A stretch of 26,569 bases of DNA from Planctomycetaceae bacterium (GTDB lineage: Bacteria > Planctomycetota > Planctomycetia > Planctomycetales > Planctomycetaceae): contig DATKBI010000089.1 in assembly GCA_035514115.1 (NCBI GenBank), positions 1-26,569 on the forward strand, written 5' to 3'. This document shows, in pieces, positions 3,014 to 26,569 of this stretch (position 1 is the first letter of the stretch; each line of letters begins with the position of its first letter). A program made the position numbers and the translations under genes. The notes below the pieces were generated by a model that worked only from the letters and a program-made list of their open reading frames with translations, was not told the origin of the DNA and did not search any database.

Positions 3014-4270
3014 CTATCCGCCGCCGTCCAGCGCCACCACCCGCGACCCCGGATAGTAGTACCGCAGAATGTCCGCTGCCGTTCGTCCCGCCGAGGCCAG
3101 CCCGCGCGCGCCCCACTGGCACAAGCCCACCCCGTGGCCGTGGCCGCGGCCGTGGAACGTGACCTCGGCGGGGCCCGGCTCGAGGGCGAACCGTGGACTG
3201 GGCAGCGACGCCCCCACGAGCCGGCTGCGGAGCGTGGCCGCGGCGATGCGGTGCTCGCGGCGGCCGTCGCTGACCAGCAGCTCGACCGTCCCGTCCGGGC
3301 GGTCCCGCGCGGCGGCCGATCGCAACGAGTCGAACGCCAGCCCCTCGCCCGCCAGCAGCTCGAGCAGCTTCGCCTCAAACTGCGACCGCGGAACGGTCCG
3401 CGTCCAGCGATACAGCGGCGCCTCGCGGCAGAACGCGCACGGCACGCTCGCCAGTTCCGTCGCGTCGGCGAACACCGCCCGTCCTGCGACCGTCCGCCCG
3501 CCGCAGACGGCGGAGTAATACGTGCAGAACAACCGGCCGCCGCGCGTCGAAACCATGCCCGCCGTGTCGGCGGCGATCTCGCGGCTGGCGGCGCTTTCGC
3601 CGGCCAGCCGCCGGCCGTCGCCGCTGCGATATTGAAATCCCAGGTACCGCTGGCTGCGCGTGCTGGCGAATACGTCGAACAGGGGATGCCGCCGCTCCCG
3701 CTGCCACAACGCATACGTCCGCGCCACGATCGCCTGCGCCCGGCGGGCCTCGTCGGGGAACGCCGCCGGCATCTCGCTGTCGATCACCGACGCGACGTAT
3801 TCCTCCAGCGGCAATACGTTCACGGCCAGCAGCCGGCCGCCCGGCTGGCGGAACAGCCGCAGGCGGCCGCGGTACTGGTGCCCGGCGGCCCAAACCGCCG
3901 GCGAGCGGTCGGGGACGATCTCGACCCGCGAGACGGCCAGCGTCTGCCGGCCGATCTGAAGCCCGTCGGCCGTGGCCGTGACGATCGTTTCGGGCAGCCG
4001 CGCGCCGCGCGCCAGATCCTGCGCGACTCCCACGGGCTGGACGCGATAGCCGCCGTCGACGGCGATTTCGATCCGCTCGACCGGCTCGTCGGTCAGGCAC
4101 ACGCGGATGTCGGGAGAAAAACGGGGCCGGACTGGCTGCGGCAGGCTGAGCGGCGGCCCCCCGAGGCGCGGCGGCTGCGGCCCCGCGGTCTGCGGCGAGA
4201 CGTCGAGACAGACCGCCGCCGCGATCAGAGCGGCGAGCAGCCCGATGCAGACGGCGATCCCTCGCGGCAT
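3014..4270 (-). CDS. SpoIID/LytB-domain protein (amidase enhancer-like), secreted
   Basis: It has an N-terminal signal peptide MPRGIAVCIGLLAALIAAAVC. The SpoIID core LPLEEYVASVIDSEMPAAFPDEARRAQAIVARTYAL is present, along with the conserved C-terminal GHGHGVGLCQWGA. The ribosome-binding site is GGAAGGA. Confidence 0.85.
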   Translation of the reverse strand: MPRGIAVCIGLLAALIAAAVCLDVSPQTAGPQPPRLGGPPLSLPQPVRPRFSPDIRVCLTDEPVERIEIAVDGGYRVQPVGVAQDLARGARLPETIVTATADGLQIGRQTLAVSRVEIVPDRSPAVWAAGHQYRGRLRLFRQPGGRLLAVNVLPLEEYVASVIDSEMPAAFPDEARRAQAIVARTYALWQRERRHPLFDVFASTRSQRYLGFQYRSGDGRRLAGESAASREIAADTAGMVSTRGGRLFCTYYSAVCGGRTVAGRAVFADATELASVPCAFCREAPLYRWTRTVPRSQFEAKLLELLAGEGLAFDSLRSAAARDRPDGTVELLVSDGRREHRIAAATLRSRLVGASLPSPRFALEPGPAEVTFHGRGHGHGVGLCQWGARGLASAGRTAADILRYYYPGSRVVALDGGG

Positions 4271-9730: not shown

Positions 9731-9746
9731 TGGCACAGACTGTGCT
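9731..9746 (+). promoter_or_regulatory. candidate sigma54 (-24/-12) promoter, TGGCAC-N5-GTGCT
   Basis: The sequence TGGCACAGACTGTGCT has the GG and GC dinucleotides at consensus spacing (compare TGGCACG-N4-TTGCW). It sits about 62 nt upstream of the DUF3309 start. Confidence 0.3.
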
Positions 9747-9807
9747 CCCCGCCACAGCGGACACACTGCCCGCCGTTCAGAAAAACTGACATCCCAGGGA
9801 GACACCG

Positions 9808-9963
9808 ATGCTCGAAATCCTGCTGCTGGTGGTACTGGTGCTGTTGCTGCTCGGCGCCCTTCCGACGTGGGGCTACAGTCGAAGCTGGGGGTACGGACCC
9901 AGCGGACTTCTAGGCCTGATTCTGGTCGTGGTCCTCGTTCTGGTGCTGATCCGCGCGATCTGA
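9808..9963 (+). CDS. DUF3309 family small membrane protein
   Basis: My own translation is MLEILLLVVLVLLLLGALPTWGYSRSWGYGPSGLLGLILVVVLVLVLIRAI, which matches the DUF3309 pattern GALP.WpySR.WGYgPsGglG. A GGGAGA ribosome-binding site is present. Confidence 0.7.
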   Translation: MLEILLLVVLVLLLLGALPTWGYSRSWGYGPSGLLGLILVVVLVLVLIRAI

Positions 9964-15553: not shown

Positions 15554-17680
15554 ATGGTGAGTGAACAATCGCTGCTCGAGCAGATCGCCCCGCCCGATCG
15601 CGTCAAGTCCCGCAGCCACCCGACGAACTCGTCGCGGCTGCTCCAGGGCCTGATGTCGCTGTCGCGGCGCGCTGAAGCGGCCAACGACCGCGACAGCGAG
15701 GGTCCGCACTCCCTCGCCGGTGCGATCTCGCGCAGCGTGCTCCGCAGCCTGCTCGCGGCGCTTCAATTCCGCGACGTCAGCACCGTCGAACACGCCCGCC
15801 GCACGGCCCTGCTGGCCAGCGGCGTCGCCCAGCGGCTCCGCTGGGACCACCGCGAGATCAAACGGCTCGAAGCGGCGGCGCTCCTGCACGACATCGGCAA
15901 GATCGGCGTCCCTGACAATATCCTCTTCAAGCCCGGCCCGCTCAGCACCGACGAGGCCGAGTTGATGGCCCTCCACCACCACACGGGCATCGACGTGCTC
16001 CAGGCCTGCCACGTCGATTCCGAAGTCCTGGAGATCATCCACCAGGCGCACCGCTTCTATGACGGCGTCGGCGACGTGTTCCGCGGCACCGGCCAGAGCG
16101 TCCACCTCGGCGCCCGCATCCTGGCCGTGGCCGACGCCTACGACTCGCTCAGCAACGACCAGGTCTATCGCCGCGCCAAGTCGCACCGCCAGGTCATGGA
16201 GATCCTCACCGAGGCCTCCGGAACGCGCTTCGACGGCAACGTCGTGGCCACCCTGGGCCGCTGGCTGGAAATCGAGGGCCTGCCCCACGGTCCGGGCGGT
16301 CACGAGCCGGAGGCGTACATCGGGCCGGACGACGCCGCCGAAGCCGGACAGCTCTGCCATATCTTTTCCTACCTGTACGTTCTCGAAAGCCTCTACGACG
16401 GCTTCTACCTGGTCGACAGCGACCTGCGGTTCATCGTCTGGAACCAGTCGGTCGAGTCGCTCCTGGGCCGGCCCGCGTCGGACATGCGGGGACAGGCCTG
16501 GACGAGCCGGCTGCTGGGGCTGGCCGACCGCAACGACCGCCAGCTCCCCGACGACCGTTGCCCGCTCAAGCGGGTGATCGCCGACGGCCGGCCGACCACG
16601 TCCATCCTCAAGCTCCAGCACGCCGACGGCCACTGGGTCGAGGTCGAGGCGCAGTCGATGCCGCTGCTGGACGGCGACGGCCGCTTGCAGGGCGTGGCCG
16701 AGATTCTTCGCGACGTCAACCGCACGACCCGCCGGCCCCACGAGTTCCGCGAGCTGAAGCTCGCGGCGACCCGCGACGCCCTGACGATGCTCGCCAATCG
16801 CGGCGAGCTGGAGACGCAGCTCGCCGCCCTCGTGAACGAAGCCGCCCGGCGGACCGACGCCGAGCCGTTCAGCGTAATCTTCGCCGATCTCGACTTCTTC
16901 AAGACCATCAACGACAGCTACGGACACACGACGGGCGACCGCGTGCTGGTCGAAGCCGCCCGGCTGTTTCAGAAGGAGACGTACTCCGGCGAGCTGGTCT
17001 GCCGCTACGGCGGCGAAGAGTTCGTGATCCTCTGCCCGACCACCCGGCTCGAAGACGCGCAGCGCCGGGCCGAGCGGCTGCGGGTCGTGCTGTCCCGCTC
17101 GTCGCTGGGCGGGCTGAAGGACTTCAAGGTCACCGCGTCGTTCGGCGTGGCGGAGATCGAGCCCGGAGACTCCGTCGAGAGCGTTCTCCGCCGGGCGGAC
17201 AAGGCGCTGTACATGGCCAAGCAGAACGGACGCAACCGCACGTGCACGCTGACGACGGCGGACGTCGCCGCGGGAAAAGCCGATGAGGCCCCCGGCGACG
17301 AGAACCCGAACCCCTTCGAGTTCCACGCCACGCTGCGCGTCTGCCTCGCGGCCGACATGATCGTGTACAAGCTGGGCGGCTTTGTCAGCGATCAGAAGGC
17401 GCGCCTGGTCTCGGTCACGCCGACGCGGGCCATCGTCCGCGTGGGCAGCGCCGGCCTGCTGCCGTTCTGGGGCGCGGCCGCCGAACGCCAGCCCGTCGAA
17501 GTCACGATGACCTTCGACCAGCACGAAGCCCCCACCTCTCCCGGACGCGCCGTCGTCTCCAACACCGTCAAAATGAACGTCCGCGTCCGCCCCCGCGGCT
17601 GGGTCCGAAAGCCCGACGTGTTCGGCGCCCGCGCCCGGCACGTCGTCAAGGAGCTCCGGTCGTACTTCGTGGCCGACTGA
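15554..17680 (+). CDS. multidomain c-di-GMP signalling protein with an HD domain, a PAS domain, a GGDEF (GGEEF) diguanylate cyclase and an unknown C-terminal domain
   Basis: The HD motif is AALLHDIGKIGVPD, with no GYP. The PAS motif is FYLVDSDLRFIVWNQSVESLLG. The GGDEF region shows FADLDFFKTINDSYGHTTGD and the active site RYGGEEF. The last roughly 130 aa match nothing I recognise. Confidence 0.88.
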   Translation: MVSEQSLLEQIAPPDRVKSRSHPTNSSRLLQGLMSLSRRAEAANDRDSEGPHSLAGAISRSVLRSLLAALQFRDVSTVEHARRTALLASGVAQRLRWDHREIKRLEAAALLHDIGKIGVPDNILFKPGPLSTDEAELMALHHHTGIDVLQACHVDSEVLEIIHQAHRFYDGVGDVFRGTGQSVHLGARILAVADAYDSLSNDQVYRRAKSHRQVMEILTEASGTRFDGNVVATLGRWLEIEGLPHGPGGHEPEAYIGPDDAAEAGQLCHIFSYLYVLESLYDGFYLVDSDLRFIVWNQSVESLLGRPASDMRGQAWTSRLLGLADRNDRQLPDDRCPLKRVIADGRPTTSILKLQHADGHWVEVEAQSMPLLDGDGRLQGVAEILRDVNRTTRRPHEFRELKLAATRDALTMLANRGELETQLAALVNEAARRTDAEPFSVIFADLDFFKTINDSYGHTTGDRVLVEAARLFQKETYSGELVCRYGGEEFVILCPTTRLEDAQRRAERLRVVLSRSSLGGLKDFKVTASFGVAEIEPGDSVESVLRRADKALYMAKQNGRNRTCTLTTADVAAGKADEAPGDENPNPFEFHATLRVCLAADMIVYKLGGFVSDQKARLVSVTPTRAIVRVGSAGLLPFWGAAAERQPVEVTMTFDQHEAPTSPGRAVVSNTVKMNVRVRPRGWVRKPDVFGARARHVVKELRSYFVAD

Positions 17681-17686
17681 CCTCCG

Positions 17687-17714
17687 TTGACTCGTCCCGC
17701 CCGCCTGCTAGAAT
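17687..17714 (+). promoter_or_regulatory. sigma70-type promoter TTGACT-16-TAGAAT for tRNA-Pro
   Basis: The -35 TTGACT is at 17687-17692 and the -10 TAGAAT at 17709-17714 with a 16-nt spacer. The predicted transcription start lies a few nt before the tRNA 5' end at 17727. Confidence 0.5.
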
Positions 17715-17726
17715 GCAGCGCAACAT

Positions 17727-17800
<74 letters not shown>

Positions 17801-17813
17801 CTTGAAATCAAGA

Positions 17814-17855
17814 ACAGCTCGCTGCATTCATTTGCAGCGAGCTGTTTCTCGTTTT
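17814..17855 (+). terminator. Rho-independent terminator after tRNA-Pro
   Basis: A perfect 13-bp stem (ACAGCTCGCTGCA paired with TGCAGCGAGCTGT) encloses the loop TTCATT. It is followed by TTCTCGTTTT. Confidence 0.7.
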
Positions 17856-17908
17856 CGGACAATAGTTGACAACGGAAGACGGGCATCTGGAAATCCGGTT
17901 CAAACGCC

Positions 17909-18709
17909 TTGCCTGAGCAATACCACCTCAACCTTCCTGCCGATGTCGTCGCTTGGTTCGACGGCGAACTCTGGAAGGAATGTTCGGAGACGGGCTTCGG
18001 CCAGCCCATGGAACCGGCACAGCTGCTTGACTCCAACTCGTCAGCGCTCTGGGGCGGGCAGATGCTCCCTGACACCCTTCCCATCTTGGACAATGGCTGC
18101 GGTGACGCACTCTGTCTTCGCTTCAATTCGAATGGGACCGTGTCCGAAGTCGTTCGTTGGCTCCACGAGGGAGGAGACTGGACACCGTTTGGGACGAGCC
18201 TGTGCGAGGCGCTGCTGTTAGACGCCGCGATAACCCTGATGGAAGAACCGCCGGGCGGCATGGAAGATCGAGTGGAGGACATCGGATACGCCGATTGGGC
18301 GCTCAAGTGGTTGGAAGGCGTAAGTCAACAGTCGAGCATCCGACAGACCCTCAGCAAGGAGCACGCACTTCCAGTCATGGGGCTCCTGGAGGCCAATGTT
18401 GCGGAAGCTGCTGTGCGCCGCATGCTTTGCCAACACTGTTGCACAAGCGGGCTGCAAAGGTTTTGCCACGCGTCCGGCGGCAACCTGCTGGCCACGAAAC
18501 TCGGCGTCCCATGGCCGGTTTTCTCGCAGTGGTTGTTCGATACGGCGCTGATTCCCAAAGAAATGGAAACAAAACTTGCGAAGGCGACAGGGATGTCCTT
18601 TGACGATCTATCGCGGCAGGACTGGGGCGGCGCGGTGGCTCAGGCTGAAAGAGTCGCTGCCTTGCGGACTGACCTGAGTTGGCCGTTCGCCGTGTTAGCA
18701 GCCCGTTGA
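17909..18709 (+). CDS. SUKH-1 (SMI1/KNR4) family protein of the polymorphic-toxin immunity type, with no toxin gene beside it
   Basis: The segment LPILDNGCGDALCLRFNSNGTVSEVVRWLHEGGDW matches the SMI1/KNR4 core pattern G.G..LCLd...g.V..WdHE. It sits in a lower-GC (about 57%) islet directly after tRNA-Pro. The start is uncertain: the track uses TTG at 17909 and the first ATG is at 18008. Confidence 0.5.
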   Translation: MPEQYHLNLPADVVAWFDGELWKECSETGFGQPMEPAQLLDSNSSALWGGQMLPDTLPILDNGCGDALCLRFNSNGTVSEVVRWLHEGGDWTPFGTSLCEALLLDAAITLMEEPPGGMEDRVEDIGYADWALKWLEGVSQQSSIRQTLSKEHALPVMGLLEANVAEAAVRRMLCQHCCTSGLQRFCHASGGNLLATKLGVPWPVFSQWLFDTALIPKEMETKLAKATGMSFDDLSRQDWGGAVAQAERVAALRTDLSWPFAVLAAR

Positions 18710-18789
18710 ATTATTCCCTTGACAGTGATGCTATCATGCCTGCCTGAGTCGCGCGAGTGCACGTGTCGGCACGGAGGCAAGACAGTCCC

Positions 18790-18921
18790 ATGGCCATGGG
18801 CAAGCGGAAACAGCGGCAGGAGTGCCTGTTTATCGGGGCGGACGACCTGCCGCGGTCGAGCGGGCATCCGTTTTACGAGAAGCTCAAGGCCACCTCGACA
18901 ACGCGCTTGCTCACCAGTTAA
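18790..18921 (+). pseudogene. remnant of an IS5/IS1182-family transposase N-terminal (DUF772-like) region, truncated after about 43 codons
   Basis: My translation is MAMGKRKQRQECLFIGADDLPRSSGHPFYEKLKATSTTRLLTS followed by a stop. The motif LF...DDLP...HPFY.KL resembles the conserved N-terminal motif of IS5-family transposases (LF..eLvP.dHplr.I). No DDE domain follows. Confidence 0.35.
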
Positions 18922-19044
18922 GAACACGCTGTCTACGGTGTCAAGCCCCCTGACGCGGCCGTGCCGTTGATCCCGGAGACCCGGCCGGCCACAATCGAGA
19001 AGCCCTGCGGAATCCACCAGCGAAACGCATGGCGCCGCCTCGCA

Positions 19045-21201
19045 ATGAGATCTCCGATGCACCGCGCGATCCTCGCTCTGCTGGTCCTGAACGCGGCCGC
19101 GTTCTCGTGTCCCGGCACGCCGCCGGACACGAAACGCCGCCCGGTCGCCGACGTCTACCATGGCGTCCGCGTCGTCGACGACTACCGCTGGCTCGAAGAC
19201 GGCAGCGATCCCGCGGTCAAGGCCTGGAGCGACGCCCAGAATGCCCGCGCCCGCGCGTTCCTCGACGGCCGGCCCCGCATCGAGGCCGTCCGCGCGCGCG
19301 TCGCCGGGATCATGTCGGCCCCCGCCGTGCACTACGGCAGCCTGGCGTACCGCGGCGGAATGCTGTTCGCAATCAAGCACGCGCCGCCGAAGCAGCAGCC
19401 ATTCCTCGTCATCGTCGATCCGCGCGACGAAACCGCACCCGACCGCGTGCTGCTCGACCCGGCCGTGCTCGATCCCCAAGGCGGCACGGCGATCGACTGG
19501 TTCGTCCCCTCGCACGACGGGCGCCATGTCGCCGTCTCACTGTCGCACGGCGGCACCGAAGCCGGCGACGTCCACATCTACGAGACGGCCAGCGGCCGGG
19601 AGGTGTTCGAGGTCATTCCGCGGGTGAACGGCGGCACGGCCGGCGGCGACCTCGCCTGGCTCCCCGACGGCTCGGGCTTCTTCTACACGCGCTATCCTCG
19701 CGGCGATGAGCGGCCGCCGGCCGACCGCGACTTCTACCAGCAGCTCTACTTTCACAGGCTGGGCACCCCGACGGACGAGGACCGCTACGAACTGGGCCGC
19801 GATTTCCCCCGCATCGCCGAGATTCAGCTCGAACTCGACGAGGACTCCGGCCGGCTGCTGGCGACCGTGCAGAACGGCGACGGCGGCGAGTTCGCCCACT
19901 ACCTGCGCGCGCCCGCGGGCGGATGGCGGCAGTTCAGCGAGTTCGCCGACAAAACGGTCCTGGCCACCTTCGGTCCCGCGGGGCACCTGTTCGTCGTCTC
20001 GCGGCAGGACGCCCCACGCGGCCGGATCCTGCGGGTGCCGATCGACACGCTGGACGTGGCCCGCGCCCGGACGATCGTGCCCGAGGGCGACGACGCGATC
20101 ATCGCGGACTTCTGGGGTCCCCCGAGCGTGCTGGCAACCGACAGCCGCCTGTACGTCCTGTATCAGCTCGGCGGCCCGTCCGAAGTCCGTGTCTTCGACC
20201 ACGAAGGACGGCCGCAGCCCGGGCCGCGCCAGCCCGAGGTCTCGTCGGCCGGCAGCCTGACGCGGCTCACGAGTGACGAGATCCTGTTCGAGGCCGAGTC
20301 GTACCTCGACCCGCCGGCGTTCTTCCGGTTTGATCCCGCCAGCGGAACAACCCGGAAAACCGCCCTGGCCACCGATTCGCCGGTCCGCTTCGACGACGCC
20401 GAGGTCGTCCGCGAGTTCGCAACCTCCGCGGACGGTACCCGCGTCCCGGTTAACATCATCCGGCGGCGGGGGCGGCGGACGGCCAACGGCGATGGCCCCC
20501 AGCCCTGCCTCGTCACCGGCTACGGCGGCTACGGCGTGAGCAATGAGCCGCGGTTCCGCGCCACCACCCGCATCCTGCTCGACCAGGGCATGATCTACGC
20601 CGTCGCCAACATCCGCGGCGGCGGCGAATACGGCGAAGACTGGCACCGGCAGGGGAACCTGACGAACAAGCAGAATGTGTTCGACGATTTCGCCGCCGTG
20701 CTGCGGCACCTGATCGACCGCGGCGACACGGCTCCCTCGAAGCTGGCGATCATCGGCGGCAGCAACGGCGGCCTGCTGATGGGCGCCACGCTCACGCAGC
20801 ACCCCGAGCTCGTGCGGTGCGTGGTCTCGTACGTCGGCATCTACGACATGCTGCGCGTCGAGCTCTCACCCAACGGCGAGTTCAACATCACCGAGTTCGG
20901 CACCGTCAAGGACCCCGATCACTTCCAGGCGCTAAACGCCTACTCGCCCTACCACAACGTCGCGGACGGCACGAAGTACCCCGCCGTGCTGTTCCTCACC
21001 GGCGAGAACGACCCGCGCGTCGATCCCATGCAGTCGCGGAAGATGGCCGCCCGCCTCCAGGCCGCCACGGCCTCATCCCATCCGATTCTGCTGCGGACCA
21101 GCTCCAGCACCGGTCACGGAGGCGACACGCCGCTGGCCGAGCGCATCGCGGAGACCACGGACGCGTACGTGTTCCTGTTCGACCAGCTCCGTCTCAAGTA
21201 G
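19045..21201 (+). CDS. prolyl oligopeptidase (S9A family serine peptidase), secreted
   Basis: It has a signal peptide MRSPMHRAILALLVLNAAAFSC. The N-terminal beta-propeller region shows YHGVRVVDDYRWLED. The catalytic nucleophile motif is GGSNGGLLMGA, and the peptidase_S9 C-terminus has the Asp/His residues. Confidence 0.9.
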   Translation: MRSPMHRAILALLVLNAAAFSCPGTPPDTKRRPVADVYHGVRVVDDYRWLEDGSDPAVKAWSDAQNARARAFLDGRPRIEAVRARVAGIMSAPAVHYGSLAYRGGMLFAIKHAPPKQQPFLVIVDPRDETAPDRVLLDPAVLDPQGGTAIDWFVPSHDGRHVAVSLSHGGTEAGDVHIYETASGREVFEVIPRVNGGTAGGDLAWLPDGSGFFYTRYPRGDERPPADRDFYQQLYFHRLGTPTDEDRYELGRDFPRIAEIQLELDEDSGRLLATVQNGDGGEFAHYLRAPAGGWRQFSEFADKTVLATFGPAGHLFVVSRQDAPRGRILRVPIDTLDVARARTIVPEGDDAIIADFWGPPSVLATDSRLYVLYQLGGPSEVRVFDHEGRPQPGPRQPEVSSAGSLTRLTSDEILFEAESYLDPPAFFRFDPASGTTRKTALATDSPVRFDDAEVVREFATSADGTRVPVNIIRRRGRRTANGDGPQPCLVTGYGGYGVSNEPRFRATTRILLDQGMIYAVANIRGGGEYGEDWHRQGNLTNKQNVFDDFAAVLRHLIDRGDTAPSKLAIIGGSNGGLLMGATLTQHPELVRCVVSYVGIYDMLRVELSPNGEFNITEFGTVKDPDHFQALNAYSPYHNVADGTKYPAVLFLTGENDPRVDPMQSRKMAARLQAATASSHPILLRTSSSTGHGGDTPLAERIAETTDAYVFLFDQLRLK

Positions 21202-21408: not shown

Positions 21409-22080
21409 ATGCAGGAGTTCATTGACGCCTGTTTCAGGGGACCGACGCTGCCGGCGAGCATCCTGCTGATCGTCGCCTGCGTGTACTGGGTGTTCGCGCT
21501 GCTCGGGGCCCTGGACCTCGATCTGTTCGACCTCGATCTGGACGTGGACGTCGATGCGGACGCGCCCGGCCATTCGCCGGCCGACATCGGCTTCGTCGCC
21601 CTGCGGTTCCTGAACCTGGGGCGGGTGCCGCTGATGATCTGGGCGAGCGTGTTTGCCCTGGCGTTCTGGTCGGCTTCGATGCTGATTGACGCGACTCGCA
21701 CCTACGCGGGCGGCGGCGAGATCGCGCTGGCGATCGCCCGCAACCTTGGACTGGCCCTCGTGGCGGCCAAGCTGCTGACGCAGCCGCTGCGGGGCAAGTT
21801 CGACGTCCACGAGCCGAACCCCGCCGAGGACTTGATCGGACGGACGTGTGTGATTACCACCACCGAGGCGACGGACCGCTTCGGCTGGGCGCAACTCGAA
21901 ACCGGCGCCTCGCCGCTGGCCCTCAGCGTGCGGGCGACCGACGGAAACCTGTCGAAAGGCGACGTGGCCGAGATCTGCGGCTACGACGCCGAACAACGAA
22001 TCTACCTGGTGAAGGCCGCCGGAAACGTCGAAGCCCGAATGACGAACGAAGCCCGAATCCCGAATGACGAAGGGCGCTGA
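21409..22080 (+). CDS. YqiJ-family (DUF1449, NfeD-like) inner-membrane protein, the usual partner of flotillin
   Basis: A TM helix is followed by an acidic DLDLFDLDLDVDVDAD linker, a second TM pair and a C-terminal NfeD-like beta region. It lies immediately upstream of a flotillin gene, as in E. coli yqiJK. Confidence 0.7.
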   Translation: MQEFIDACFRGPTLPASILLIVACVYWVFALLGALDLDLFDLDLDVDVDADAPGHSPADIGFVALRFLNLGRVPLMIWASVFALAFWSASMLIDATRTYAGGGEIALAIARNLGLALVAAKLLTQPLRGKFDVHEPNPAEDLIGRTCVITTTEATDRFGWAQLETGASPLALSVRATDGNLSKGDVAEICGYDAEQRIYLVKAAGNVEARMTNEARIPNDEGR

Positions 22081-22177
22081 GCCGCCCGGCTCGCGCCACC
22101 CGACCCCGACCCCGACCCCGGCCGCACCTTCGGGCTTCGGACTTCGTCATTCTTTCGTCATTCGAGCTTCGTCATTC
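22037..22177. repeat. array of the 10-mer GAATGACGAA (2 forward copies) and its complement TTCGTCATTC (3 copies), flanking a (CCCGAC)3 tract
   Basis: The forward copies are at 22037-22046 and 22062-22071, inside the 3' end of the yqiJ-like gene. The reverse copies are at 22143-22152, 22154-22163 and 22168-22177. (CCCGAC)3 is at about 22099-22118. Together they form a long imperfect inverted repeat just upstream of the flotillin ribosome-binding site. Confidence 0.6.
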
Positions 22178-22206
22178 GTTATTGACGAGTGTGAAAGGAA
22201 CCTCCG

Positions 22207-24246
22207 ATGCTGCTCGCTGCTGACATCCTGGGCGTCGCCGTGCCGACGTTCGTCGCCATCATCGTGGGCGTCGTGCTCGTCCTGCTGGTGATCGCCTCCT
22301 CGTTCTCCAAGTTCTACCGCAAGGTCGGCCCCGAGGAGGCGATGGTCGTCACCGGCGTCGGCGGCCTGAAGGTCGGCACCGGCACGGGCATCTGGGTGAT
22401 CCCCGTCTTCCAGCGCTTCGAGCAGATGGACCTCTCGGTCAAGCGGATCGAGATCGCCCGCCGCGGCGAAGCCGGCCTGATCTGCAAGGACAACATCCGC
22501 GCCGACATCGAGGTCGCGTTCTTCGTCCGCGTCAACAACACCAAGGAGGATATTCTCCAGGTCGCCCAGTCGCTCGGCTGCCGCCGGGCCTCCGACCCGC
22601 AGGCCCTGAACGAGCTGTTCAACGCCAAGTTCTCCGAGGCCTTGAAGACCGTCGGCAAGCACTTCGACTTCACCGAGCTGTACAACCAGCGCGAGCAGTT
22701 CAAGGAGCAGATCCTCAAAGTCATCGGCACGGACCTCAACGGCTACAAGCTCGACGACTGCGCGATCGACTATCTCGAGCAGACGCCGATCGAGAAGCTC
22801 AACCCGATGAACATCCTCGACGCCGAGGGCATCAAGAAAATCACCGAGCTGACGTCGCGCGAGAAAGTCCAGGAAAACCATTTCACCCGCGAACGCGAGA
22901 AAACCATCAAGAAGCAGGACGTCGAGGCCGCCGAGACGATTTTCGAACTCGAAAAGCAGCGCGTCGAGGCCGAGCAGAAACAGCTTCGCGAGATCGCCGC
23001 CATCACCTCCCGCGAACAGGCCGAGGCGGCGAAGGTCCAGGAAGAAGAGCGGCTCCGCTCCGAGCGGGCGCGGATCATCACCGAAGAGGAAGTCGCCGTC
23101 GCCGAAGAGAACAAGCTGCGTCAGGTCATCGTCGCGCGCAAGAGCAAAGAGCGCACCGACGCGGTCGAATCCGAGCGCGTTGAAAAGGACCGTCTGCTCG
23201 AAGTCACCGAACGCGAGCGCGTCTTCGGCCTCGCGCAGATTGAAAAGGACAAGGCCATCGAACTCCAGCGCCGCGATATCCAGGAGGTGATTCGCGAACG
23301 CGTGATTGTCGAGCGCGCCGTGGTCGAGGAACAGGAGCGGATCAAAGACACTCACGAGTTCGCCGCCGCCGATCGGCTGAAACAGGTGACCGTCACCAGG
23401 GCCGAGATGTCGGCGCAGGAATCGCTGGTCAAGGAGGTCAAGGCCGCCGAAGCGTCGCGTCAGGCCGCCGACCTGCTGGCCCAGCAGGTCGTGATCGAGG
23501 CCGAAGCGCAGCGGTCGGCCGCCGAGAAGCAGACGATCTCCAAGAAGATGCTGGCCGAGGCGCATCAGGCGGAATCGGCCGCGCCGGGTCTGGCCGAGGC
23601 GCAGGTCCTGGCGGCGCGGGCCGACGCGGTCGAGAAGCACGGCACCGCCGAGGCCGAGGTCATGCGGCTGAAGTTCACGGCGGAGGCCACCGGCATCGAG
23701 GCCAAGGCCGAGGCGATGAAGCTGTTCGACGGCGTGGGCCGCGAGCACGAGGAGTTCAAGCTGCGGCTCAACAAGGACAAGGACATCGAGATCGCGGCCA
23801 TCGAGGCGCAGCGGAACATCGCCCGCGACCAGTCGGAGATCGTCTCGGCCGCGCTCCAGAGCGCGCGGATCGATATCGTGGGCGGCGAGACGGCGTTCTT
23901 CGACAAGATCGTGGATTCGATCAAAGGCGGGAAGGCCGTGGACCGGTTCGTGCAGAGCAGCCAGGTCCTCTCGGACGTCAAGGAGACGTTCTTCGACGGC
24001 AACGGCGACCCGGACTACTTCCGCAAGCAGCTCAAGCGGTTCGTGTCGCACTTCGGGATGAATTTCGAGGACATCAAGGACCTGTCGGTCTCGGCGCTGA
24101 TCGGCCGGATGATCCTGGAGTCGTCGAGCGAGGAGACGACCAGTGACCTCACGCGGATCCTGCGGATGGTCAAGGGCGCGGGCGTGGCCGACAAGCGCGT
24201 GGCGTCGCTGGGGCTGGGGCTGGCGGAGACGGCGGACAAGAACTGA
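22207..24246 (+). CDS. flotillin-family SPFH/band-7 protein (YqiK-like)
   Basis: The N-terminal TM is VPTFVAIIVGVVLVLLVIA. The SPFH domain shows EAMVVTGVGGLKV...SVKRIEIARRGEAGLICKDNIRADIEVAFFVRV. It has a long Glu/Arg/Ala-rich coiled-coil flotillin region. It is 679 aa. Confidence 0.9.
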   Translation: MLLAADILGVAVPTFVAIIVGVVLVLLVIASSFSKFYRKVGPEEAMVVTGVGGLKVGTGTGIWVIPVFQRFEQMDLSVKRIEIARRGEAGLICKDNIRADIEVAFFVRVNNTKEDILQVAQSLGCRRASDPQALNELFNAKFSEALKTVGKHFDFTELYNQREQFKEQILKVIGTDLNGYKLDDCAIDYLEQTPIEKLNPMNILDAEGIKKITELTSREKVQENHFTREREKTIKKQDVEAAETIFELEKQRVEAEQKQLREIAAITSREQAEAAKVQEEERLRSERARIITEEEVAVAEENKLRQVIVARKSKERTDAVESERVEKDRLLEVTERERVFGLAQIEKDKAIELQRRDIQEVIRERVIVERAVVEEQERIKDTHEFAAADRLKQVTVTRAEMSAQESLVKEVKAAEASRQAADLLAQQVVIEAEAQRSAAEKQTISKKMLAEAHQAESAAPGLAEAQVLAARADAVEKHGTAEAEVMRLKFTAEATGIEAKAEAMKLFDGVGREHEEFKLRLNKDKDIEIAAIEAQRNIARDQSEIVSAALQSARIDIVGGETAFFDKIVDSIKGGKAVDRFVQSSQVLSDVKETFFDGNGDPDYFRKQLKRFVSHFGMNFEDIKDLSVSALIGRMILESSSEETTSDLTRILRMVKGAGVADKRVASLGLGLAETADKN

Positions 24247-24259
24247 TCGTGTCGGAACA

Positions 24260-26569
24260 TGGCTCAGGCAGCAAACAGCACCGGCCCGCAGGACCAGGCC
24301 GCGCCGTCCGAGCCGGCGCTCGACAGCGGGACGTATGAGATCATCCGCAACCGCCTGCGGGGGCATGCGGCCGAGCTGCGCGAGCGGCTCGCGCAACTCA
24401 ACGCGGCCCGCAAGGATGTGTTCGGGTCGATCGATACGGCGCTGATCGCGACCGAGCGCGTCACCACGGCGCATAACTGCGTGCCGCGGGACATGCTGGC
24501 CGTCGGGAACCGGTTCCTGTTCGGCTACAACGTCCACTTCGGCCTGAAGACCGAGCGGGACCTGGCGGACGTGTTTTCGGTGTACGAGTTCCGCGAGAAC
24601 TCGTTTCATGAACTGCCGCTGGACCTGATCCGCGACGCGGCGTTCGAGAAGCACTTCCAGGACGTGTACCGGTACTACAAGGACGCCGTGTTCGCGAAGT
24701 TTTTCGCGCGCGGGCCGCACCTGTACATCGTCTTCCGCGTCGGCAAGACGCCGGCCGACATCAAGACGTTCAAATGGCTCGTCGAAGGCGACGGGCTGCG
24801 GTATCTCGACAACCGCAGCGATCACGAGGTGCGGTATCCGCCGCAGCACGAGTTCGAGTGGACGCGCACGCACCGCGACATGCACTACGCGGGGCCGCAC
24901 CCGCACGTCTCGATCGAGGACCGGCTGTTCGTCGAGACCGTGGGCGGCGACCTGACGATCAAGGTCGAGAACAACACCGACTCGGGCGAGGGCATCTACG
25001 CCGAGCCGGTGGACGACCCGGACCAGACGCTGGATGACGCCGAGATCTATTATGCGTCCGTCGGGAACATCATCCTGCTCAAGGTGCGGCCCTACCAGGA
25101 GCAGCGGTTCCGGTACTTCGTCTACAACGAAAAGATCCGGCGGGCGGTGCGGCTGGATGCGATCGAGCACGCCTGCGTGCTGCTGCCGGGAGACCACGGG
25201 CTGATCTTCTCCAACGGCTATTACCTGCAGACCGGCGAGCACAAGACGTTCGAGAGCGGCCTGACGGACATGCAGTTCTCGCGGCGGATCGCCGCGCCGA
25301 ACGGAGAGGACTACCTGTACGTCTTTTATCACCGCGCGTCGGGCGTCTCTACGCTGCTGGGTTACAACGTCATCGCGCAGCGGGTCGAAACGCCGGTCAT
25401 TTGCCACGGCTTCACGCTGTTCAAAGGCGGCGAGCTGATCCTGTTCAAGGCGCAGCCGGAGCCGCAGAGGCACCACGCGATCCAGATCTGGCAGACGCCC
25501 TACGTCGGCGAAGACTACGTCCCGCACGTCACGAGCGACAGCTATCTGTTCAAGGTCGGCAACCGCGACATCGTGCGGGCGATGGCCGAGTGCCACGAAG
25601 TGCTGGCGCTGATCGACAAGGACGACACGTACTCGGGCCTGTACGTGGACCTGGTCAAGGCGGCCGGCGACATCATCGACAGCTACTTCTGGATCGACCG
25701 GCCGGAAGCGTTCCGGATCCAGGAGCCGCTGGCGCAGATCCGGGACGCGGCGGCGGCGGCGATCAATGAGTTCGAGAAGGTCGTCCGCGTCCGCGAGAAC
25801 ACGGCGGCCGAGACGCGGCGCGTGACGGGCGAGGCGCGGAGCCTCCTGGCGGGCGCCGGACGCAAGCGGTACGAGGTGATTGGCGATTTTGTGGCGTCGC
25901 TGGCCGACCTGCGGCGGGTGCGGGGCGAGGTCATCGCGCTTAAGGACCTGCGGTACGTGGACCGCGGGCTGGTGGAGCGGGTCGAGGGCGAGGTCGCGGA
26001 GGCCTCCGAGCGGCTGGCGAAGCGGGCGGTCGAGTTTCTGCTGCGGCCGGATGCGCTCTGGCCGTATATCGAGCAGGTGCGGGCCGAGCAGGCGAAGATC
26101 GGCGGTCTTCAAAAGGTCACCGATGCCCGCCAGCTCGAAGAGGCGATCGCCGCCAGCGCCGCCGAACTGGAGATGCTCGTCGAGATTGTCTCGAACCTGG
26201 CGATCGACGACGCCACGCAGCGGACGGTGATCATCGACAGCATCTCGGCGATCTTCACGGACATCAACCAGGCGCGGGCGGCGCTCCGGCGGAAGACGAA
26301 GGAGCTGGCGTCGGTCGAAGGCGTGGCCGAGTTCGGCTCGCAGTTGAAGCTCTTGAACCAGAGCGTCGTCAACTCTCTGGACGTGTGCGACACGCCGGAG
26401 AAGTGCGAGGAGTTCCTGACGCGGGTGATGATCCAGCTCGAGGAGCTGGAGGGCCGGTTCGCCGAGTTCGACGAGTTCGTCGTGCAGCTCACCGAAAAGC
26501 GGGAGGAGGTCTACAACGCCTTCGACTCGAAGAAGCTGGCGCTGATCGAGGCGCGGAACAAGCGGGCCG
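24260..26569 (+). CDS. large conserved hypothetical protein (more than 770 aa visible, C-terminus outside the window), co-operonic with flotillin
   Basis: The ATG sits 13 nt after the flotillin stop. The frame stays open for 770 codons to the window end with coding-like high-GC third positions. The N-terminal roughly 450 aa are beta-rich (YLYVFYHRASGVSTLLGYNVIAQRVETPVICHGFTLFKGGELILFKAQPEP), followed by a helical, coiled-coil-like region. There is no Walker A motif in the visible part. It is absent from the ORF track only because no stop falls in the window. Confidence 0.7.

Follow-up and report, generated by a model that had tools for sequence, protein, structure and literature searches.

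A truncated SUKH-family immunity-type gene and a transposase stump beside tRNA-Pro in a planctomycete: the probable scar of a recent horizontal transfer

A low-GC islet between tRNA-Pro and a peptidase gene

The DNA analyzed here, called the window, is the whole 26,569-nucleotide (nt) stretch of contig DATKBI010000089.1 from a Planctomycetaceae bacterium (assembly GCA_035514115.1). Directly 3' of its tRNA-Pro gene (anticodon CGG) lies a short islet of low GC content with two open reading frames (ORFs). One encodes a protein of 266 amino acids (aa) that carries the NCBI name "SMI1/KNR4 family protein" (SUKH), and the other begins with the stump of a transposase gene. In this study, we show that the SUKH-family ORF is an imported fragment of a considerably longer gene, and we weigh how the islet may have come about. 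The features of the region are the following.

15554-17680, + strand: HD-GYP/PAS/GGDEF signalling gene, native left flank, GC content at third codon positions (GC3) 0.92 (Pfam)
17687-17714, + strand: promoter-like site TTGACT-16-TAGAAT before the tRNA (consensus scan only)
17727-17801, + strand: tRNA-Pro, anticodon CGG (ARAGORN; Rfam)
17812-17857, + strand: terminator-like hairpin of 14 to 15 base pairs (bp; 14 bp perfect) with a T-run, after the tRNA
17909-18709, + strand: truncated SUKH-family ORF, 266 aa, TTG start (homologues of ~420 aa)
17910-18699, + strand: imported segment, 86 to 90% DNA identity to the full-length genes at loci L002, L001 and L087 (blastn, codon alignment, breakpoint alignments)
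18700-18789, + strand: 90 unmatched bases, presumed from their position to be the left end and leader of an insertion sequence
18790-18888, + strand: IS1182/IS5-type transposase remnant, first 33 codons (tblastn)
18889-18921, + strand: read-through tail of the stub ORF, ten unrelated codons and a stop (alignment; similarity ends after "EKL")
18922-19044, no strand: spacer to the likely peptidase start, with rising GC and no match to any fetched locus
19045-21201, + strand: prolyl oligopeptidase (S9), native right flank, GC3 0.90 (Pfam, composition)

The 1159 bases from 17802 to 18960 have a GC content of 0.590, compared to 0.673 for the whole window. Non-overlapping stretches of the same length average 0.676 ± 0.022, which places the islet about 3.9 standard deviations below them, and its value is the minimum among all sliding stretches of that length in the window. 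Furthermore, its tetranucleotide deviation of 0.49 is the window's maximum (runner-up, 0.43), and the GC3 of the 266-aa ORF is 0.69, compared to 0.90 to 0.92 in the two flanking genes. Windowed GC, tetranucleotide deviation and GC3 thereby confirm the low-GC islet 3' of tRNA-Pro that had been proposed from the letters of this DNA (here called the original prediction). The GC content of 55 to 58% given there describes the trough of the 300-bp values, which range from 0.557 to 0.62, but not the mean of 59.0%. GC is back up by about position 19000, shortly before the likely start of the peptidase, a methionine codon at 19045 that is followed by a signal-peptide-like stretch. A search of the islet against Rfam returned nothing besides the tRNA (66.7 bits), and its DNA had no matches among plasmid and phage sequences.

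A fragment of a foreign SUKH-family gene and its transposase neighbour

Homologues of the 266-aa protein measure 413 to 449 aa, with a typical length of ~420 aa (~421 codons). The window protein ends with "WPFAVLAAR*", a point at which all aligned homologues go on with "WPFAVLGWAAERQGD..." for ~155 residues. At the DNA level, the identity with L002, L001 and L087 stops abruptly after ...GTGTTAG (18699), and the stop codon of the ORF is supplied by unrelated sequence, 9 bases past this 18699/18700 breakpoint. The other end is likewise incomplete: L001, L002 and L087 have a conserved upstream region and an ATG start ("MSNWSSRLS") in common, neither of which is present in the window, where homology to the family genes starts at about 17893 to 17910 in the 5' breakpoint alignment. 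The ORF thus corresponds to roughly the first 270 family codons minus the first few. Lost from this copy are the last ~155 residues, i.e., 37% of the protein, including the whole TPR domain, which is conserved in all full-length family members. The sole start codon of the ORF is a TTG located 52 bases after the strong terminator-like hairpin, and a consensus scan found no promoter-like site between the two.

The SUKH gene of the window is therefore real, but it is a fragment and not an intact orphan gene. The original prediction of a retained orphan immunity gene did not hold in this respect, given the missing family start, upstream region and C-terminal ~155 residues. The finding also corrects the database record, where an ordinary "SMI1/KNR4 family protein" is listed that is easily mistaken for an intact orphan immunity gene.

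The closest relatives of the fragment reside in other lineages. Positions 17910 to 18698 are 88.7% identical to L002 in blastn (contig GC, 0.618), and the fragment is 86% DNA-identical to L001, a Gemmataceae metagenome-assembled genome (MAG) with a GC content of 0.571, and 90% identical in a codon alignment to L087 (GC, 0.624). Apart from the tRNA, which is 83% identical in L002, these contigs have no other match to the window. The family gene nearly matches the GC content of the neighbouring DNA on the contigs of L001, L002 and L087, but falls 8 to 10 points below it in the window. The fragment has the same GC3 as the full-length copies (0.692), showing no compositional drift toward the host. 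For comparison, three relatives of the host (L088, L089 and L090) have 78 to 80% DNA identity to the window across proC and the GGDEF gene. The islet was thus acquired horizontally, as the original prediction had supposed from its composition, and the transfer was recent and bridged two deeply separated lineages. A native conserved gene was considered as well and is ruled out by the GC3 of 0.69 versus 0.90 and by the 86 to 90% DNA identity to genes on contigs of 57 to 62% GC.

The second ORF of the islet spans 18790 to 18921 and comprises 43 codons with an ATG at 18790. In tblastn against plasmids, its residues 1 to 33 align from residue 1 of annotated transposases of 451 to 454 aa, which carry DUF772 (residues 57 to 130) and DDE_Tnp_1. 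In the reverse search, residues 1 to 34 of reference transposases matched the window only at 18790 to 18891 (E values, 2e-6 to 4e-5). An exhaustive profile search yielded 2085 proteins with the stub motif at the N terminus, and DUF772 follows directly after the motif in 6 of the 10 longest profile matches. Among NCBIfam models, IS1182 fits these relatives best and IS5 next best, both below their curated cut-offs. Searched by itself, the stub had no match in NCBIfam or Pfam, and DUF772 and the DDE catalytic domain are absent from the window. A word-index protein search with the stub gave two matches, namely, the stub itself and a 60-aa TARA fragment. Judged by these similarities, the stub is the extreme N terminus of an IS5/IS1182-type transposase, with the N-terminal motif M-x-x-G...Q...PRS-GH-FY--L of these elements. 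Compared to complete insertion sequences of this type, it retains only 33 codons and lacks DUF772, the DDE domain and a recognizable terminal repeat. The original prediction of an IS5-type remnant was hence right as to the kind of protein but too generous as to its length, since the similarity ends at 18888 and only the first 33 codons (~100 coding bases) belong to the transposase.

The 90 bases ahead of the stub (18700 to 18789) show no similarity to any fetched locus; the region upstream of the stub could not be aligned with the TARA contig L006, and the element has lost its right end. The same transposase stump appears at NCBI, from the third codon of the stub ORF onward, as a 41-aa "hypothetical protein VML55_02760". 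The 150 best matches to the transposase profile (P0147-P0294) are all short, with 43 to 317 aa, and nearly all of them match at residues 1 to 45; many may be similar stumps or fragments at contig ends.

The SUKH-TPR family and its place behind Rhs toxin genes

The window protein matches the Pfam model SMI1_KNR4 with 23.5 bits (E value, 9e-5; residues 46 to 98), which is below the gathering score of 25.4. Similarly weak matches were obtained for all 16 aligned family members, with TPR models matching the C-terminal part, and a distant member (L101, 916-3147) reaches 46.2 bits. A confident AlphaFold model of the full-length protein P0003 (predicted local distance difference test [pLDDT], 87; predicted template modelling score [pTM], 0.88) consists of three parts: an alpha/beta N-domain (residues 1 to 120), a helical middle with a weak Cro/PbsX-like (helix-turn-helix [HTH]) resemblance, and a TPR-like C-domain from about residue 245. 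In a fold search, the N-domain displayed the SUKH alpha/beta fold with helices, a four-stranded sheet and a C-terminal helix. A profile of the N-domain gave no SUKH match among PDB sequences; the likeness to SUKH structures emerged in the fold comparison. A PADLOC search of the family returned nothing. Of the SMI1/KNR4 (SUKH) gene in the original prediction, the domain and its fold therefore stand, with a Pfam match that stays sub-threshold; the gene is not intact, as start codon, upstream region and TPR domain are missing.

The family differs in build from the SUKH immunity proteins (PF09346) with solved structures, such as RhsPI of the RhsP-WHH pair (PDB 8bd1). These are single domains of ~130 to 160 aa, whereas a helical middle and a TPR domain bring the proteins of the window's family to ~420 aa. 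The window copy further departs from them in its truncation, its sub-threshold Pfam score and its lack of a toxin partner. Likeness exists in gene order, since members of the family, though not the window copy, also follow immediately after Rhs C-terminal toxin domains (see below). At L101 (916-3147) and L102 (4308-6539), we noted a 744-aa ORF with SUKH_5 at residues 89 to 122 and SMI1_KNR4 at residues 333 to 429 (46.2 bits). This ORF, with its two SUKH-like segments, may encode an immunity protein of tandem or fused build.

Using the family alignment in a metagenome scan, we found 33 further loci, the neighbouring ORFs of which were clustered and scanned with Pfam. At L096 and L097, the family gene lies 3' of a gene for an RHS-repeat protein on the same strand, with a gap of at most a few dozen bases. 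The family proteins of these two loci are 40 to 43% identical to the window protein, and the one of L097 has 418 aa. In L097, the Rhs protein ends with a DPSGL motif and a C-terminal domain of ~200 aa, and the family gene begins 16 nt further on. This C-terminal domain is common to L096 and L097 and bears the signature "YHHLVE(Q/K)GG...N...N..PTP..H". L103 harbors a gene-less fragment of the same type of domain directly 5' of its family gene. The locations of the Rhs C-terminal toxin domain with the YHH signature (~200 aa) are as follows.

L096: 3-1466
L097: 4590-5957
L103: about 3440-3800

In each of these cases, the SUKH-TPR gene is next. Furthermore, L099 has its family gene in an array that comes after a 1487-aa Rhs protein (14 RHS repeats), and orphan Rhs C-terminal pieces come next in both L097 and L099. 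The place of the family gene after Rhs toxin genes is the classical Rhs immunity position, which supports the immunity-type nature that the original prediction had assigned to the SUKH gene. A Pfam search with the YHH-type C-terminal toxin domains matched no family; guessing from the motif, the domain may be an HNH-like nuclease. The immunity position also accords with earlier work on SUKH proteins, as Zhang, Iyer and Aravind noted SUKH genes beside HNH-type toxins in planctomycetes in 2011 (PMC3113570).

In the window itself, the position on the same strand just 3' of a toxin gene, which is found in L096, L097, L103 and the L099 array, is not seen. Pfam detected no Rhs or toxin domain among the window genes, and the 5' neighbours of the islet are the tRNA and the GGDEF/HD-GYP gene, in agreement with the earlier remark that no toxin gene precedes the SUKH gene. 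Members of the close subclade (L001, L002, L087 and L091) also have no adjacent Rhs gene, so that these copies are already "orphans". The uncatalogued ~420-aa SUKH-TPR family, found in soil planctomycetes after Rhs toxins with an unclassified C-terminal domain, is a side result of greater value, and the SUKH-TPR gene and the Rhs C-terminal domain make up a candidate toxin-immunity pair that can be tested. To our knowledge, interbacterial antagonism has apparently been little studied in the planctomycete phylum.

Origin of the islet and alternative readings

Rather than a working cassette, the islet as a whole is probably a decayed scar, left by an Rhs-immunity-type gene that was acquired recently by horizontal transfer, was recently broken and is by now most likely inert. 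What we observed directly are composition and homology, the two breakpoints, the SUKH fold and the association of the family with Rhs genes; for the order of events and the donor lineage, we infer the following course. A high-GC planctomycete would have acquired the ~420-aa family gene, comprising SUKH domain, helical middle and TPR domain, from a lower-GC, presumably Gemmataceae-like lineage. An IS1182/IS5-type element would then have inserted at about family codon 270 (window codon 264; 18699/18700), and a later deletion would have removed all but ~190 bp of the element together with the last ~155 codons of the gene. The start codon of the gene and the sequence ahead of it would have been lost as well. 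What would remain is a 266-codon frame with the SUKH domain and the middle part, deprived of its native promoter, beside a 33-codon transposase stump. The position of the stub, which starts 90 bases after the gene breakpoint and on the same strand, is the geometry expected of an insertion into the gene followed by a deletion. The loss of the TPR domain and of the native start, with a TTG behind a strong terminator-like hairpin and no promoter-like site between the two, counts against function. Most likely, the fragment no longer functions; at most, it would act as a residual immunity protein.

Several observations weigh against this account. The fragment itself shows no decay: its 260 comparable codons contain no internal stops and no frameshifts, 28 of 28 family-invariant residues are kept, and the window-specific codon changes (7 non-synonymous and 11 synonymous; ratio, 0.64) resemble those of intact relatives. 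Pairwise ratios of non-synonymous to synonymous substitution rates (dN/dS) of 0.31 to 0.50 equal the range among the full-length copies. Such an undecayed sequence fits a recent truncation as well as continued use, and the fragment could be expressed and useful. With respect to the mobile elements, no convincing terminal inverted repeat or target-site duplication was seen around 18700 to 18960, and no integrase is encoded among the window genes. Apart from the tRNA itself, the window contains no copy of the tRNA 3' end (22-nt and 16-nt patterns with up to 3 mismatches). The direct repeat that the original prediction had envisaged near 18930 to 18960 was accordingly found neither there nor elsewhere in the window, and with both integrase and repeat missing, the signature of a tRNA-targeted integration is absent. 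The host relatives do not provide an empty site either. In L088, L089 and L090, the GGDEF proteins are 80 to 81% identical to that of the window, the synteny ends exactly at the GGDEF stop codon, and there is no tRNA-Pro at this place. Finally, the contig stems from a MAG, and the closest sampled copy is at a synonymous distance (dS) of about 0.21, which indicates that the true donor is unsampled.

Past the GGDEF stop codon, the relatives show two arrangements, with either LUD_dom, response regulator and purA or a GDPD gene. Among the scanned GTDB representatives with the peptidase, none was above 65% identity, and none had synteny or the tRNA. The block of tRNA, islet and peptidase therefore sits at a rearrangement point or hot spot. 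A short palindromic intergenic element is common to the window (22119-22183) and L088 (4620-4749), with 83 to 84% identity, in both orientations and in different gene contexts.

The 3' flank of tRNA-Pro(CGG) is a recurrent address in the closest lineage of the gene. In the window, the islet ORF lies 108 bp downstream of this tRNA, and in L002 the full-length gene is located 425 bp after a tRNA-Pro(CGG). L002 also repeats the tRNA 3' core at 9882 to 9897 with 15/16 matches, ~100 bp ahead of the gene and 326 bp downstream of the intact tRNA; 0 such copies are expected by chance. In L001, which has no tRNA within 10 kb, a 14/16 relic occupies the homologous position (9884-9899). No tRNA was detected in the flanks of the 33 further family loci or at L087, the closest copy. 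Overall, the recurrence is compatible with an element that targets the tRNA or with recombination via the conserved end of the tRNA. Between the tRNA and the relic of L002, a small ORF (9737-9913) was noticed that by eye resembles a piece of a "four-helix-bundle / 23S rRNA intervening sequence" protein.

A more specific mechanism within the explanation given above, rather than an exclusive alternative to it, is that the gene was the tRNA-proximal cargo of an island that had integrated by site-specific recombination into tRNA-Pro(CGG) at its 3' end and later lost its integrase and far attachment (att) repeat by deletion. We regard this as possible, with the balance tilting against it. The 15/16 and 14/16 tRNA copies and the similar spacing of ~100 to 120 bp from tRNA or relic to the gene in the window, L002 and L001 speak for such an element, but neither integrase nor att repeat is left in the window, the spacer (17802-17909) shares no homology with the sequence ahead of the gene in L001 and L002, and flanking tRNAs are absent from L087 and from all 33 further loci. 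It appears unlikely that the islet holds a functional orphan immunity gene, i.e., that the 266-aa protein is expressed, for example through transcription running on past the tRNA or starting at an unrecognized promoter, and protects against the Rhs toxins of Gemmataceae-like neighbours, which is the reading that the original prediction had leaned toward. The intact SUKH domain with all invariant residues, the lack of internal stops and the ratio of 0.64, just as in intact copies, would agree with that reading, as would the Rhs immunity position of the family elsewhere. In addition, other bacteria are documented to have orphan immunity genes that protect against non-self effectors (PMC10539506, PMC10470768). 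However, more than a third of the protein is gone, with the universally conserved TPR domain; neither the native start nor the sequence ahead of it is present, leaving the TTG 52 bp past a strong terminator-like hairpin; and the absent decay is explained equally well by a recent truncation. A recently broken and probably inert remnant is therefore favoured over a working SUKH-only immunity protein.

Still less probable is a chimeric assembly, in which a low-GC piece of a co-occurring Gemmataceae-like organism would have been joined in, with one seam at the insertion-sequence remnant and the other close to the tRNA; we consider this very unlikely. The MAG origin of the contig, the composition and DNA identity of the islet, which fit another lineage, the repeat-type sequence (an insertion-sequence end) at one border, and the last 31 bases of the tRNA, which are identical in L002, would all be compatible with such an artifact. 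Yet two independent false joins within 1.2 kb would be required, the left one (about 17893 to 17910) is 100 bases past the tRNA at a place with no known repeat, and only ~190 bases of the insertion sequence are present, where a join at a shared repeat usually carries the whole repeat. Both flanks are, moreover, host-like and colinear. Between the last two readings in likelihood, and quite improbable in its entirety, ranks a bolder proposal. According to it, the Rhs immunity proteins of Planctomycetota would include a separate class with three domains, the ~420-aa SUKH-helical/HTH-like-TPR proteins, which moves between orders as small cassettes settling 3' of tRNA-Pro(CGG), and the SUKH-only remnant of the window would still be expressed and protect against YHH-type Rhs toxins of Gemmataceae neighbours.

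The preferred reading, a scar of transfer and subsequent breakage, places the islet among known kinds of horizontal-transfer remains and leaves the general picture unchanged. Like tRNA-linked genomic islands, it has a foreign-composition segment starting 3' of a tRNA gene; unlike them, it spans just 1.2 kb, has no integrase and no duplicated tRNA end, and its relatives lack a tRNA at the locus. Like known orphan immunity genes and acquired interbacterial defence clusters (for example, PMC10539506, PMC10470768, PMC12247911), it combines a toxin-less immunity-type gene with foreign composition and mobile-element debris. Those genes, however, are intact, with protection shown experimentally, and often arrayed on mobile elements with recombinases, whereas the window holds one broken copy. 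In this form, the islet is a small, clean example of how an imported immunity-type gene decays, through cross-order transfer, insertion-sequence disruption and deletion.

The other genes of the window encode NqrA, SpoIID, an AI-2E transporter, a hybrid kinase, ProC, YqiJ-like, SPFH and DUF3686 proteins. From 21409 to 26568 on the + strand, the YqiJ-like, SPFH/Band-7, DUF3686 ATPase and DUF7902 genes form a run. The second-lowest GC content of the window (0.596) occurs at 22500 to 23000, although the GC3 of the gene there is 0.91.

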